A DNA stretch of 64,000 nt, taken from an uncultured Agrobacterium sp. (lineage in GTDB: Bacteria; Pseudomonadota; Alphaproteobacteria; Rhizobiales; Rhizobiaceae). Positions 13,967 to 18,254 of this stretch are shown piece by piece; the stretch's first letter is position 1; every line of letters begins with the position of its first letter. Under the pieces are notes generated by a model, which had not been told where the DNA came from, did not search any database, and saw only the letters and a program-made list of their open reading frames with translations. Both the position numbers and the translations under genes were made by a program. The DNA is taken from the NCBI RefSeq assembly GCF_913777615.1, contig NZ_CAJYTK010000018.1. One strand, given 5' to 3'.

Positions 13967-14788
13967 CTACCACAGCTTCACGTGGCGGTTGACATCCTTG
14001 TAAAGAAGGTAGCGGAAACGTCCAGGCCCGCCAGCATAACACGCCTGAGGGCAAAATGCGCGCAGCCACATGAAATCGCCCGCCTCGACTTCGACCCAAT
14101 CCTTGTTGAGCCGGTAGACGGCCTTGCCTTCCAAAACGAAAAGACCATGCTCCATCACATGGGTTTCCATGAAGGGAATGATGGCGCCCGGTTCGAAGGT
14201 AACGATGTTGAGATGCATGTCGTAGCGGCCATCAGCCGGATCGATGAAACGTGTCGTTGCCCACTTACCCTCCGTATCGGGCATCGCTGACATCTCATGC
14301 TCATCCTCATGGGTGAAAATGGCAGGAGGCAATTCAAGGCCTTCGACCTTGTCAAACACCTTGCGCACCCAATGAAACTTTGCGGCGACCTCGCCCGTCG
14401 CCCGCAGCGACCACTTGCTTCCCGCGGGGATATAGGCAAACGAACCGGATCGCAGCTCGTGGTCTTCGCCTTGAAGCGTGATGGTCATTTCGCCCTCGAC
14501 CACGAAGATCGCAGCCTGTGCGCGTGCGTCTGGCTCAGGCCTCTCGCTGCCTCCGCCCGGCTGCACTTCCATGATATACTGCGCGAATGTCTCCGAAAAT
14601 CCGGTCATAGGACGCGAGATAATCCAGGCGCGCGTCTCGCTCCAGTGGGGCAGCACGCTGGTGACGATATCGGACATGACCCGTTTTGGAATGACCGCAT
14701 AGGCTTCAGTAAAGACCGCCTTGCTGGACAGCAGCTCGGTCTGCCCTGGCAGACCGCCAAAATCGGAGTAGTAACGCTTCTTGTCCAT
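13967..14788 (-). CDS. allE: (S)-ureidoglycine aminohydrolase (bicupin, AllE/YlbA family)
   Basis: FTEAYAVIPK, FAQYIMEV, ETHVMEHGLFVLEGKAVYRLN, WLRAFCPQACYAGG, YLLYKDVNRH; start moved to ATG 14788. Confidence 0.88.
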   Translation of the reverse strand: MDKKRYYSDFGGLPGQTELLSSKAVFTEAYAVIPKRVMSDIVTSVLPHWSETRAWIISRPMTGFSETFAQYIMEVQPGGGSERPEPDARAQAAIFVVEGEMTITLQGEDHELRSGSFAYIPAGSKWSLRATGEVAAKFHWVRKVFDKVEGLELPPAIFTHEDEHEMSAMPDTEGKWATTRFIDPADGRYDMHLNIVTFEPGAIIPFMETHVMEHGLFVLEGKAVYRLNKDWVEVEAGDFMWLRAFCPQACYAGGPGRFRYLLYKDVNRHVKLW

Positions 14789-14913
14789 TATGCACCCCAC
14801 ATCGGCAAATTGAAATCAGGCGAGAAGCTTTAAAACGTTTCGCGGATGGTGGGAATCCACCACGAGCGGAAAACATGGTGTCCCCACATCTTCCGCACCG
14901 AGGCAAGGACAGC

Positions 14914-15957
14914 TTATCGTTTCCTGATGATGCCATAAACGATGTTCCGGTTCTGACCGTAAAATACCTCGCTATCGCCTGCCGATGGGGAAACGCTGGC
15001 GTTGATGATCCTCCACATATCCGCGCTGTTGCGAAGGAGAAGCGCCCAGTTCATGAAGGACTCCATATAGCCGTCCACTGCGATCTCTTCTGCAAAGTTT
15101 GCAAAGAGGAAGGTGCCCCCGGGCTTTAACATATCGAGGCATCGTTTTGTCAGCTTGATGGCGACCTTCTCCGTCAAGTAGTCGTAGAGCCCTGCGGCGT
15201 AAACGAAGTCGAAGCATCCGAGGTCGTGCGAGCGCAACAGAATGTCCTTGACCGATCCGTCGACCGCTTCCACGCAGGAGCCTGCAAAGTCACGCGCAAT
15301 GGAACCGACGCTCAACGGGTCCTGATCGAGGGCGACCCAACGCTTGATCCGCTTTTCCGCTAGTGCCCTTGAGCCGTTCGCCTCCCGTAGATGGCCAGCA
15401 GCAATTGTCAGTATCTCCGTTTCAGGCGCATGTTTTTCCGCGACCTCATCCACATAGCGCGTGAGGATGTCACGCCGCTCCCTTACGGCAACGGAGGACG
15501 AGGCATTGCGTGTATAATCGTAAAGGGCAGCGCCAAGGGGAGATGCGCTGGCGATGTGGTCGGCCACACTTTCATGCCCGTAGATGAAATCGAGAAGTTG
15601 CGCGTCTCCTGAGTAGCCGCGAGGCTTATCGAAGGACCACCGGGTAAAGGGATCTTCCAGAAAGCAATCGGCGACGGGGTGCTTCTGGATGATGGGCAGA
15701 AGGCTTGACCACACTCTATAGTCGTAATTTCTGCGTAATTGATGAAGCCTATCTGCAACCGCGTGTATTATCGTGGCAGGAGCGGTTCCGCCAAGAAACT
15801 GTTGTTGTGCCAGGTTGAGAATAAGTGCCACTTCTGCTTCTGCAACGGAAAGATCCCGGAGCAAATGACTACTATTTTGCGTCAGCAATTCCTTATATAC
15901 TGCATCCGGCGTGACCAAGCTTTGTCCGTCCAACGACATGCCATTGTTGCGAGCCAC
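14914..15957 (-). CDS. Class I SAM-dependent methyltransferase, PhcB-like
   Basis: Motif I ILTIAAGHLRE, acidic motif ALDQD, FDFVYAAGLYDYL, LKPGGTFLFANF; N-terminal KPRGYSGD motif; GTG start 8 nt after AAGGGG. The methyltransferase call is strong, the PhcB relationship is from recall. Confidence 0.85.
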   Translation of the reverse strand: MARNNGMSLDGQSLVTPDAVYKELLTQNSSHLLRDLSVAEAEVALILNLAQQQFLGGTAPATIIHAVADRLHQLRRNYDYRVWSSLLPIIQKHPVADCFLEDPFTRWSFDKPRGYSGDAQLLDFIYGHESVADHIASASPLGAALYDYTRNASSSVAVRERRDILTRYVDEVAEKHAPETEILTIAAGHLREANGSRALAEKRIKRWVALDQDPLSVGSIARDFAGSCVEAVDGSVKDILLRSHDLGCFDFVYAAGLYDYLTEKVAIKLTKRCLDMLKPGGTFLFANFAEEIAVDGYMESFMNWALLLRNSADMWRIINASVSPSAGDSEVFYGQNRNIVYGIIRKR

Positions 15958-16062
15958 CAGCTATTCCCCTTCCAAACTATTGTTAAAACAGAATAATTTA
16001 TCAAAATGCCCGCTCGGCACGGATGATTGACGATCCAGGCAAGAGGAACTCGTTTCTAGGCC

Positions 16063-16070
16063 TTAACCAT
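16063..16070 (+). promoter_or_regulatory. TTAACCAT CtrA-type half site in AT-rich divergent promoter
   Basis: Exact TTAACCAT 8-mer in the methyltransferase / GGDEF-EAL intergenic region. Confidence 0.35.
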
Positions 16071-16271
16071 TAATGTATGACTAATGACTAAAATTAGATT
16101 GTTAGGATTCAAAGAAAGTTAATCGGAATGCGGGTAGGCTTATAAAGCTAGTACATCTCCTTCTCTGGCTGAGAATGGAGCGTAGCGCAGGTCGCGATGC
16201 TGATAGAGAATAGTATTATAGGGGCAAGAATGATCACTTGCCCAAAAACAATGCAACTTTTAGGAATGTGC

Positions 16272-18254
16272 ATGAAGCACAGTTTGGCACAGGGTTTCGA
16301 GCCCGACCTGCAGACGGATGCATCTCGCAATCGGTCCGATGCGGCTGTGCGGCAACAATTCTTTGCCGATACGGACGTCACACGCCGGCGAGCGATACGG
16401 CGGGGTCTTTGGGTTGCCGTTCTCATATATCTGCTGTTCTCGCTGACCGATATTCTGCTCGTTCCTGACGTTTCCATCCACACGACATTTGCGCGCTTCG
16501 TCGTCGGCATCGCTGCCCTATTGGCACTTGAATTGCAGGTCAGGGCGGGAACGAGAGCGGACTTCATGGACCTTACCTGCGCCGTGGCACTGGTATGCGG
16601 CTATCTCGGCTGGCTGTTGCCAGCCATGATGACGAGCTACGCCACCAACATGTCCTACTACATGGTATTCGGCGCCATCTTCATGATGGGCGCGAACCTG
16701 TTCTTCACGTTCAATTTTGCTCTCTCTCTGGTGGCGTCCGGTGTGGTGCTGTGCATCTACTTCGGCGCCTTGAATTATCTGCATGAAGATATTTACTACC
16801 GGATCGCTTTCGGTACGTTCTATCTCGCCTGCTTCAGCTTTACCTCTTACGTCAATTGGCGCCTCAATCGCGAGCGCGCACGCGTTCTCCTCAGCGCTGT
16901 CGAGGCAAAAATTCGTCAGCGTGAAGCGGAAGAGCGGGGAGAAGCACTGTTAAGGCTTTCCAATACCGACCCGATGACGGGCGTTGCAAACCGCCGCGCC
17001 GTCGATGCGCAGCTGCGTCTCCTCTGGAGCGACTGGACAACGTCGAAGCGAAACTTCGCAGTTTTCCTGATCGACGTCGATTTCTTCAAAAAGTATAACG
17101 ACTACTATGGCCACCAGGAGGGAGATCGTTGTCTCGTTCAGGTAGCTCGTGCCCTTCAACTGGCGGTCAGCGATCGCGATGCGTTGATAGGGCGTTACGG
17201 TGGCGAAGAGTTCATTGCACTGCTGCGCTTCAACACGCGACAGGAAGTGGATAAGGTTGCGGAGATGATTCGTCGCGCGGTGGAGGATCTTTGCCTCGCT
17301 CACGAACGGCGTCGAGACGGCACCTCCGTCATCACCGTCAGTGTTGGCGTGTCCTTCACACGTCCAGCTCCCGAGCATAAATTGGAACGCTTGATCTATG
17401 AGGCAGACCGGGCGCTCTATCTCGCCAAGGAAAGCGGGCGCAACAGGATCAAGCTGTTCGACCCTGACGATCCGCTGACGAGCGACGACACCGAAAATGT
17501 TGCGGCCCTTCTGGATATCGCCATTCAGCAGAACCTCGTTTCACTCGTCTACCAGCCGATCCGAAGCCTCGCCAACGATCGCGTCCAGGCGGCAGAAGCA
17601 TTGATGCGCCTGCGGCTGCTGGACGGAACACTGGTTCCGCCCAGTATCTTCATTCCCATCGCTGAGCGGATAGGCAAGATAACCGATCTCGGCCTCTGGG
17701 CAATCCGTACGGCCTGCCAGCAGATGCTACAAACCGGCAAGGTTCAGGTCGTCAGCGTCAACGTGTCACCCATCCAACTGAAACGGCCGGGCTTTGCCAC
17801 GTCGGTGGCTGCCATTCTAGGCGAGCTTGGCATTGGAGGCGGACAACTCGCGCTGGAAATCACCGAAGGCCTGGAGATGGACATGGATTCCGATGTCCTG
17901 CGCTGTATCAGCGATCTGAGAATGCTCGGCATCAAGATATGGCTGGACGACTTCGGCACCGGTTTTGCGGGGCTCTCCTGGCTGCGACTGATCGAATTCG
18001 ATACCGTCAAGATCGACAAGTCATTTCTGCATGACGGCACGAGTCTGCGCGGCAAAGCCATGCTCAAGGATATTATCGGCCTGATCCGCAACCGCGGCCC
18101 AAAGATCCTCGTCGAGGGCGTCGAAACAGTCGAACAACTTCACTTGATGCAGCAATTCAAGATCGATCATGTGCAAGGCTATTTCGTCGGTCGCCCGGTT
18201 TCCGCCGAGGCGTTCGAGGTATCGAGAGCGAACGGCGTAAAGGGCATGCGCTGA
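16272..18254 (+). CDS. Membrane-bound diguanylate cyclase/phosphodiesterase (6TM-GGDEF-EAL)
   Basis: Six hydrophobic helices, a coiled-coil linker, TDPMTGVANRR, IDVDFFKKYND, GRYGGEEF, then AEALMR, EITE, DDFGTG, VKIDKS, EGVE, QGY. Start set at ATG 16272 (TAGGA 6 nt upstream). Confidence 0.93.
   Translation: MKHSLAQGFEPDLQTDASRNRSDAAVRQQFFADTDVTRRRAIRRGLWVAVLIYLLFSLTDILLVPDVSIHTTFARFVVGIAALLALELQVRAGTRADFMDLTCAVALVCGYLGWLLPAMMTSYATNMSYYMVFGAIFMMGANLFFTFNFALSLVASGVVLCIYFGALNYLHEDIYYRIAFGTFYLACFSFTSYVNWRLNRERARVLLSAVEAKIRQREAEERGEALLRLSNTDPMTGVANRRAVDAQLRLLWSDWTTSKRNFAVFLIDVDFFKKYNDYYGHQEGDRCLVQVARALQLAVSDRDALIGRYGGEEFIALLRFNTRQEVDKVAEMIRRAVEDLCLAHERRRDGTSVITVSVGVSFTRPAPEHKLERLIYEADRALYLAKESGRNRIKLFDPDDPLTSDDTENVAALLDIAIQQNLVSLVYQPIRSLANDRVQAAEALMRLRLLDGTLVPPSIFIPIAERIGKITDLGLWAIRTACQQMLQTGKVQVVSVNVSPIQLKRPGFATSVAAILGELGIGGGQLALEITEGLEMDMDSDVLRCISDLRMLGIKIWLDDFGTGFAGLSWLRLIEFDTVKIDKSFLHDGTSLRGKAMLKDIIGLIRNRGPKILVEGVETVEQLHLMQQFKIDHVQGYFVGRPVSAEAFEVSRANGVKGMR

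Follow-up and report, generated by a model that had tools for sequence, protein, structure and literature searches.

Does a methyltransferase gene that lies head to head with the gene of a membrane-bound enzyme of c-di-GMP (cyclic diguanosine monophosphate) make the signal that its neighbor reads? The question is raised by positions 14,914 to 18,254 of a 64,000-nucleotide stretch of DNA from an uncultured Agrobacterium sp. (contig NZ_CAJYTK010000018.1; the whole stretch is called the window hereafter). A sequence-only reading had noticed a methyltransferase, likened to PhcB of Ralstonia, transcribed away from a GGDEF-EAL protein with six transmembrane helices (6TM) across 314 AT-rich bp. Both open reading frames (ORFs) exist, and the divergent promoter spacer between them (15958-16271, 314 bp) has 41% GC against 58% for the window. 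We consider it probable that the pair is a PhcB/PhcS-type synthase-sensor unit whose output was switched from a kinase and phosphorelay to a GGDEF-EAL enzyme of c-di-GMP turnover. The homology of the enzyme to PhcB and of the 6TM module to the PhcS sensor, described below, implies that both halves descend from a unit of the PhcB/PhcS type. Literature searches returned no publication that deals with the pair or with rhizobial relatives of PhcB.

The methyltransferase is a distant member of the PhcB superfamily

The methyltransferase gene (14914-15957, minus strand) starts with GTG, preceded by the Shine-Dalgarno-like stretch GGAAGGGG. It encodes a protein of 347 residues that the ORF call, the structural model and the homology to PhcB place among the cytoplasmic class I methyltransferases of the PhcB superfamily that depend on S-adenosylmethionine (SAM). 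The gene occurs once in the 4.55-Mb genome, and the closest named homologues of its product come from Rhizobium, Agrobacterium, Ensifer/Sinorhizobium and allied genera. The AlphaFold model (predicted local distance difference test, pLDDT, 91) shows an N-terminal domain of helices, about 175 residues long, followed by a seven-stranded class I Rossmann fold, which bears out the earlier description of a stand-alone class I enzyme with extra N-terminal helices and the motif FTRWSFDKPRGYSGD. The SAM-binding catalytic domain with the Rossmann fold spans 14914-15426 on the minus strand (residues ~178-347), as delimited by the secondary structure of the model, alignments and Foldseek. Generic methyltransferase domains all scored below threshold; for instance, Pfam Methyltransf_25 reached 24 bits with a cut-off of 27.

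The motif FTRWSFDKPRGYSGD (15604-15648, minus strand) was placed by alignments at residues 104-118. Its residues K111, P112, G114, Y115, G117 and D118 are invariant across 30 orthologues and align to the invariant KPLGYAGD of PhcB, the version in the window being KPRGYSGD. The sequence-only reading had named KPxGYxGD as a hallmark of PhcB-like proteins, and it is indeed invariant ahead of the Rossmann fold in both families (30 enzyme orthologues and 11 PhcB sequences).

PhcB yardsticks were obtained by searching 401 genomes of the phylum with a profile of the 30 orthologues, which found weak matches in ORFs of 460-485 residues. These ORFs have a kinase gene downstream on the same strand. In the Ralstonia and Massilia loci, Pfam shows four overlapping genes for a methyltransferase, a histidine kinase, a receiver-plus-kinase protein and a receiver; the third gene of Ralstonia has no Pfam match, yet matches PhcS in BLASTP. 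This gene order corresponds to the phcBSRQ layout. The yardstick proteins were named by exact look-up in Ralstonia mannitolilytica (464 residues), Cupriavidus (463 residues) and Massilia (462 residues), and members of their clusters carry the IMG name 'extracellular factor (EF) 3-hydroxypalmitic acid methyl ester biosynthesis protein', and KEGG gives PhcB this EF name. The yardsticks have an arginine at position 22, and R22C in phcB is an adaptive mutation in R. solanacearum (PMC6989110). A diagnostic polymerase chain reaction primer, used to look for the R. solanacearum locus, had no match in the genome contigs.

Compared with these yardsticks, the window enzyme matched the PhcB of the phcBSRQ-type locus of Massilia in BLASTP with an E-value of 2e-17 (27% identity over 248 residues) and that of R. 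mannitolilytica with an E-value of 3e-13. The two families matched in hhalign with a probability of 99.25% (E 5.7e-20, 235 columns). The alignment covers residues 93-345 of the enzyme and 204-457 of PhcB, that is, from shortly before the motif to the C-terminus. The superfamily of the enzyme is large, with 5345 cluster representatives at E-values up to 0.001. One representative, matching the orthologue profile at 1e-81, stands for a cluster in which one member bears IMG's PhcB name. The proposal of a PhcB-like methyltransferase stands in the sense of homology, not of orthology: judged by these comparisons, the enzyme is a distant member of the PhcB superfamily (~26% identity) and not a PhcB orthologue, with PhcB proper forming one remote branch. 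No NCBIfam model names PhcB or PhcS, and because the yardstick PhcB proteins also lack a specific match there, the empty NCBIfam result for the window enzyme is uninformative.

For the enzyme model, the top Foldseek match was an uncharacterised protein from Bordetella parapertussis annotated as a 'possible exported protein' (PDB 3ocj), which extends over the helical domain as well as the Rossmann fold (E 1.6e-12, TM-scores 0.52/0.60) at 16% identity and was missed by the sequence profile search. Next came SgvM, DnrK, NodS and CmoA; according to the structural matching, these four and 3ocj are small-molecule methyltransferases with helical substrate-binding domains. Sequence searches of the PDB gave weak matches to phosphoethanolamine methyltransferases and nothing stronger. 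Pfam found neither PilZ nor another known c-di-GMP-binding domain in the window methyltransferase.

The extreme N-terminus of the enzyme carries the peptide DG(E/Q)SL(I/V)TP (15907-15930, minus strand; residues 10-17), which is near-invariant in the orthologues of the Rhizobiaceae, with D10, S13, L14 and T16 at >=90% in the orthologue alignment. It is absent from a shorter out-group homologue (L031). It lies within residues 1-30, modelled at low confidence (pLDDT 38-68), so that the segment is probably flexible or disordered, and it may be a docking motif.

Two side observations concern the wider superfamily. The best-scoring representative beyond the Rhizobiaceae, a Pirellulaceae protein of 704 residues (P0121), contains two tandem copies of the methyltransferase domain in a single chain. 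The N-terminus of PhcB, at about residues 10-60 and with R22 among them, resembles a degenerate segment of a PilZ-type barrel, VRGTI.NLQR..LVME (L073:7811-9205, L074:8239-9630 and L075:1998-3386); distant PhcB relatives have recognisable PilZ domains, while Pfam gives none in PhcB itself.

The membrane module is related to the PhcS sensor domain

The second gene (16272-18254, plus strand) encodes a 6TM-GGDEF-EAL protein of 660 residues, as defined by its ORF, Pfam and the N-termini of orthologues. The longest ORF extends from 16197 to 18254 (685 residues), and we take the ATG at 16272 as the likely start because orthologues share the N-terminus MKH(T/S)LAD. Hydropathy and an AlphaFold model on 25 orthologues (pLDDT 86) agree on six membrane helices, as proposed earlier. 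They are connected by loops of 3-5 residues, so the protein has no periplasmic domain. Pfam recognizes no domain in the first 250 residues, where the 6TM region lies, and identifies GGDEF (E 4e-44) and EAL (E 7e-59) in the protein.

Because the distant alphaproteobacterial relatives of the enzyme adjoin kinases that can be aligned with PhcS, membrane part included, we compared an alignment of the 6TM module (25 sequences) with one of the N-terminal membrane domains of PhcS-type kinases. The latter held four sequences from phcBSRQ operons of Burkholderiales and nine from Alphaproteobacteria, and no GGDEF-EAL sequence. The two alignments matched in hhalign over 224 collinear columns with a probability of 97.7% (E 2e-12), and an independent run gave 96.8% (E 2.2e-10). 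With the alphaproteobacterial kinases only, the probability was 96.7% (E 3.2e-10), and these kinases matched the Burkholderiales PhcS at 95% (E 3.9e-8). Controls remained low: reversed templates for the 6TM module gave 0.2-0.8% (E 0.07-0.3), and two other proteins set against the kinase alignment gave 0.2-0.4% (E 0.16-0.31).

The invariant D60 and R75 of the 6TM module (residue numbers begin at the 16272 start) line up with an invariant aspartate and a near-invariant arginine of the PhcS-type kinases. When the 4.55-Mb genome was searched in six frames with the profile of the kinase membrane domains, the sole match was at 16338-16784 in the window (E 1.7e-5), which is the 6TM region. Foldseek with the 6TM model returned no solved structure at E-values up to 0.001. 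On the strength of the profile comparisons we regard the 6TM module as homologous to the sensor domain of PhcS-type kinases, a relationship that goes beyond the earlier reading, in which the module was a candidate partner of the methyltransferase.

The PhcS-type six-helix sensor module spans 16323-16886 (plus strand, as are all features of this gene), as delimited by hydropathy, the model, hhalign and the profile search. It leads from the sixth helix (TM6) through a long linker helix (16857-16967; helix 174-230 of the model) into the cytoplasm and to the output domains, which are GGDEF and EAL without HisKA or HATPase_c. The diguanylate cyclase domain (16962-17447, Pfam) has an intact GGEEF, kept in the window protein and in 29/29 orthologues whose sequence reaches that far. 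The ten residues before GGEEF vary and contain no conserved RxxD, the optional allosteric inhibitory site five residues ahead of GGDEF. The EAL phosphodiesterase domain (17511-18197) has all the motifs EALxR, NxS, ExTE, DDFGTG, KIDKSF, EGVE and QGY, the first three reading EALMR, NVS and EITE in the window, and the catalytic signature is also complete in the out-group orthologue and in S. meliloti. The protein can probably both make and degrade c-di-GMP.

The two genes are retained together

A neighborhood survey for recurrent pairing, suggested by the sequence-only reading, found that the genes co-occur and stay adjacent in the genomes sampled. Among 151 genomes of the GTDB family, 32 have an orthologue of the enzyme (two more have only weak, paralogue-level matches). 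The 6TM module was found in the same 32 genomes, with one additional weak match in a different type of protein. All 30 loci that we fetched have the enzyme and GGDEF-EAL genes as divergent neighbors, so this arrangement is far from chance. One genome (G097) has two copies of both genes, each forming an adjacent pair (C13, ~40.9-42.9 kb; C34, ~182.7-184.7 kb), which indicates that the pair was duplicated or acquired as a whole unit.

What surrounds the pair is not retained. The flanks are wholly unlike between the window, S. meliloti and the chromid of R. etli. In S. meliloti the pair lies between genes for a GntR regulator and a TPR protein on a 3.7-Mb replicon, and the enzyme orthologue (66% identity) adjoins an EAL-domain gene; in R. 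etli the pair lies between genes for an AraC regulator and a dihydrodipicolinate synthase on the 0.7-Mb chromid. The gene beside the methyltransferase in the window (13967-14800, minus strand) encodes an (S)-ureidoglycine aminohydrolase (NCBIfam, 533 bits with a cut-off of 445). It is kept as a neighbor only inside the genus and is unrelated to the pair.

Few orthologues occur beyond the family. In one genome, which belongs to a different family of the same order, a GGDEF-EAL orthologue (46% identity across 650 residues that take in the 6TM part) precedes, in tandem on the same strand, an enzyme of this methyltransferase family with 300 residues. In this genome (G755), a 157-residue SRPBCC/Polyketide_cyc2 protein, a lipid-binding fold, is encoded directly downstream of the methyltransferase (L077:6683-7156), and a PAS-rich hybrid kinase is encoded upstream of the GGDEF-EAL gene.

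More distant relatives of the enzyme are accompanied by kinases. A PhcS-type kinase is the partner of the closest out-group enzyme in Alphaproteobacteria, which shares 37% identity and lacks PilZ. The distant alphaproteobacterial relatives have ~490-520 residues, several with an N-terminal PilZ domain, and the gene of each is convergent with that of a histidine kinase of ~450-530 residues that aligns with PhcS over its whole length, including the membrane part. Starting from the sensor, of the 26 strongest matches to the PhcS-type module in 401 genomes of Alphaproteobacteria, 24 have a PhcB-like methyltransferase no more than ~2 kb away; of the other two, one is at a contig break and one has no such methyltransferase within 9.5 kb. 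Enzyme and sensor module thus form a recurrent two-part unit, of which the Rhizobium group has a version with another output domain. One of the PilZ-methyltransferases (L083:2967-4542, genome G538), which stands beside a PhcS-type kinase, is itself split into two overlapping frames, probably by a frameshift or a sequencing error.

The shared spacer has CtrA-type sites

The spacer measures 223-356 bp in 29/30 orthologous loci. The full CtrA-type site TTAA-N7-TTAA occurs in 11 of the 30 spacers, mostly 15-40 bp from the methyltransferase start, compared with a mean of 0.36 and a maximum of 4 in 1000 resamplings. The half-site TTAACCAT occurs in 8 of the 30 (null mean 0.29), and 15 of the 30, across genera, have either the full site or the half-site. 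The spacer in the window has the half-site only (16063-16070, plus strand). This enrichment suggests that the gene pair may be under cell-cycle control. Scans of the spacer for repeats and for promoter and terminator consensus sequences revealed nothing distinctive.

A proposed mechanism and its alternatives

In the explanation that we favor, the cytoplasmic SAM-dependent methyltransferase would O-methylate a carboxylate lipid, with a free or a hydroxylated fatty acid as the likeliest substrate, and yield a neutral, membrane-permeant methyl ester. The ester would enter the membrane and bind within the six-helix PhcS-type bundle of the neighboring protein, and occupancy, transmitted through the long TM6-linker helix, would alter the activity of the GGEEF cyclase relative to that of the EAL phosphodiesterase. 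The resulting shift in cellular c-di-GMP would feed into programmes of attachment, polysaccharide production and motility. The common 314-bp divergent promoter region would co-regulate both genes, possibly through CtrA. The reported chemistry of the Phc system is consistent with this scheme: one report states that PhcB makes and PhcS senses methyl 3-hydroxymyristate (PMC10576176), and a preprint cites PhcB as methylating free 3-hydroxy fatty acids (bioRxiv 10.1101/2025.10.01.679752). We infer that the ligand is a product of the enzyme, not something it removes, and that it is a lipid methyl ester. The 6TM module would bind this ligand and thereby shift c-di-GMP, in a direction that we can likewise only propose.

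Several observations weigh against this explanation. The identity of the enzyme to PhcB is only 25-27%, and the N-terminal 200 residues of PhcB, which include R22, have no counterpart in the 347-residue enzyme, the N-terminal regions being unrelated, so the substrate is not transferable by homology. The first SAM glycine loop also differs, with IAAGHLRE in the enzyme and VGCGPA in PhcB (AAGH versus GCGP). Compared directly with the four Burkholderiales PhcS sequences, the 6TM module gave only a weak match (53%, E 1.3e-4), so that, by profile comparison, its link to them is firm only transitively, through the alphaproteobacterial kinases. Because the genomes sampled are related to one another, the perfect co-occurrence overstates independence. 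An N-terminal PilZ domain is present in many of the enzyme's relatives, which places c-di-GMP upstream in those systems, and the arrow here could be reversed or form a loop. Moreover, in one gammaproteobacterial genus, close out-group enzymes adjoin other partners without a PhcS-type module; since these neighbors (a PAS protein and a PAS-GGDEF-EAL protein) are not of the PhcS type, the association with the PhcS-type module is not universal. In this GC-rich genus, with genomes of 6-6.7 Mb, the gene of an enzyme of 295 residues follows that of a PAS protein of 367 residues; a PAS-GGDEF-EAL gene lies ~1.5 kb away in divergent orientation, and an ABC exporter gene is convergent with the enzyme gene (L079, G627:C1:4267000-4283000). 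This setting, too, is connected with c-di-GMP.

How do other explanations fare against the same evidence? The pair could be a private membrane-lipid circuit, in which methylation of free fatty acids or of some other lipid by the enzyme serves housekeeping or detoxification and the 6TM protein reads the state of the membrane or the substrate pool to tune c-di-GMP in its own cell. A sensor that lies entirely within the bilayer, without an extracytoplasmic part, would suit such a circuit, and the rise in ester emission in an S. meliloti fadD mutant fits an overflow function. We nevertheless think it unlikely, since both partners derive from a module that, in its characterised member, serves quorum sensing by a diffusible signal, and since fatty-acid methyl esters are membrane-permeant and volatile, so that privacy would be hard to keep. 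Alternatively, the GGDEF-EAL protein, through local c-di-GMP or contact, could control the methyltransferase, the enzyme then being the output; this arrangement could coexist with sensing as a feedback loop. The fusion of distant alphaproteobacterial relatives to a PilZ c-di-GMP receptor domain speaks for it, and the conserved flexible N-terminal peptide of the Rhizobiaceae enzymes could dock on the partner. However, neither PilZ nor any other domain known to bind c-di-GMP is present in the window enzyme, and such control would leave the retention of a PhcS-type sensor module by the partner unexplained. The PilZ-fused relatives themselves still adjoin a PhcS-type kinase, which shows that c-di-GMP input and product sensing can coexist, and we rate the reversal as less likely still.

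The remaining two alternatives appear much weaker. That the two genes have no functional link and that their adjacency is the inherited synteny of one clade is a reading that draws on the fact that almost all pair-bearing genomes belong to one GTDB family, related genomes being non-independent samples. It is very improbable, as it conflicts with several of the findings above: the pair alone is retained while both flanks and the replicon vary, one genome contains it twice as a unit, it is kept with altered orientation in another family, neither gene was seen alone among the 151 genomes, and the homologues of both halves are themselves partners. Most improbable of all, in our view, is a CheR-like protein methyltransferase that modifies the GGDEF-EAL protein in a form of adaptation. 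Pfam and PDB profiles did give weak matches to the SAM-binding region of CheR, among many other methyltransferases, but these were below threshold. The top structural matches (3ocj, SgvM, DnrK, NodS and CmoA) are small-molecule methyltransferases, and the characterised relative PhcB is cited as methylating free hydroxy-fatty acids.

Comparison with known systems

The closest characterised counterpart is phcBSRQ of the Ralstonia solanacearum species complex, Cupriavidus and relatives. The likeness lies in an enzyme that is homologous from KPxGYxGD to the C-terminus, a homologous sensor membrane domain, and the adjacency of the synthase and sensor genes. The window enzyme is, however, shorter than PhcB (347 versus ~463 residues) and only ~26% identical to it. 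The output of the window sensor is GGDEF-EAL, whereas PhcS has HisKA/HATPase. No gene for a kinase or for a PhcR or PhcQ receiver lies beside the window enzyme, and the two genes diverge instead of sharing an operon. PhcB makes methyl 3-hydroxymyristate/palmitate, and a methyl-ester product is proposed for the window enzyme by inference only. The pair therefore resembles phcB-phcS but is outside that system, from which it departs in architecture, operon partners and the lack of a kinase output.

The PilZ-fused PhcB-like enzymes of Alphaproteobacteria and their PhcS-like kinases, which are uncharacterised, belong to the same enzyme superfamily (E about 1e-12 to 1e-16). They have the same sensor module, being the closest relatives of the 6TM module (96.7%), and both systems are tied to c-di-GMP. 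In the PilZ-fused pairs c-di-GMP enters through the PilZ domain of the enzyme and the sensor output is phosphorylation, whereas the window enzyme has no PilZ and the sensor itself is a GGDEF-EAL protein. The genes are convergent there and divergent in the window. Reviews of PilZ proteins do not mention methyltransferase fusions of this kind.

In its logic, the proposed pair is also like the Burkholderia diffusible signal factor (BDSF) system, where a synthase of a fatty-acid-type signal is likewise beside a GGDEF-EAL receptor. In Burkholderia cenocepacia the synthase RpfF is reportedly encoded beside the PAS-GGDEF-EAL receptor RpfR, and the signal is said to act on c-di-GMP turnover with no kinase. 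Given this precedent, there is no novelty as such in linking a fatty-acid signal straight to a GGDEF-EAL protein. The components differ, in that RpfF is a crotonase-family enzyme making a cis-2 unsaturated acid and RpfR is a soluble protein that binds the signal by its PAS domain, whereas sensing by the window protein would take place in the membrane. Pfam found no crotonase or PAS domain in the window pair, and neither part is homologous to RpfF or RpfR.

A similar layout is known from CqsA/CqsS of Vibrio and LqsA/LqsS of Legionella, in which the gene of an alpha-hydroxyketone synthase adjoins that of a six-helix sensor that binds a hydrophobic autoinducer in the bilayer. We liken the window pair to these systems by layout. 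Their synthases are pyridoxal phosphate-dependent acyl-transferases rather than methyltransferases, and the output of their sensors is a histidine kinase.

Implications for the Rhizobiaceae

The known quorum sensing of rhizobia and agrobacteria is based on acyl-homoserine lactones. We put forward, as a tentative and somewhat doubtful extension of our findings, that Rhizobiaceae (Sinorhizobium, Rhizobium and Agrobacterium among them) have a Phc-like system based on a different signal. Its enzyme would be the one behind the fatty-acid methyl esters that are emitted, and the adjacent six-helix receptor of the PhcS type would read this volatile lipid signal within the membrane and convert it directly into c-di-GMP, possibly coupled through CtrA to the cell cycle, in the decision between motile and sessile life on plants.

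S. meliloti emits nine fatty-acid methyl esters, and the SAM methyltransferases concerned are described as 'as yet unidentified' (bioRxiv 10.1101/2025.10.01.679752). The same preprint reports that methyl-ester emission increases in a fadD mutant, which accumulates free fatty acids. Given its sequence, the S. meliloti orthologue is a direct candidate for such a methyltransferase, and the pair thus offers a concrete gene candidate for the question raised by this 2025 preprint. It is also a tractable system for finding the ligand of the widespread PhcS-type membrane domain, as genetics are easy in these bacteria. If the favored explanation is true, a sensor module kept its signal-making partner while its output was swapped from a kinase to a c-di-GMP enzyme. 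The pair would then provide a second, Phc-type lipid-ester channel into c-di-GMP, and with it a new input to attachment, biofilm formation and motility in plant symbionts and pathogens.

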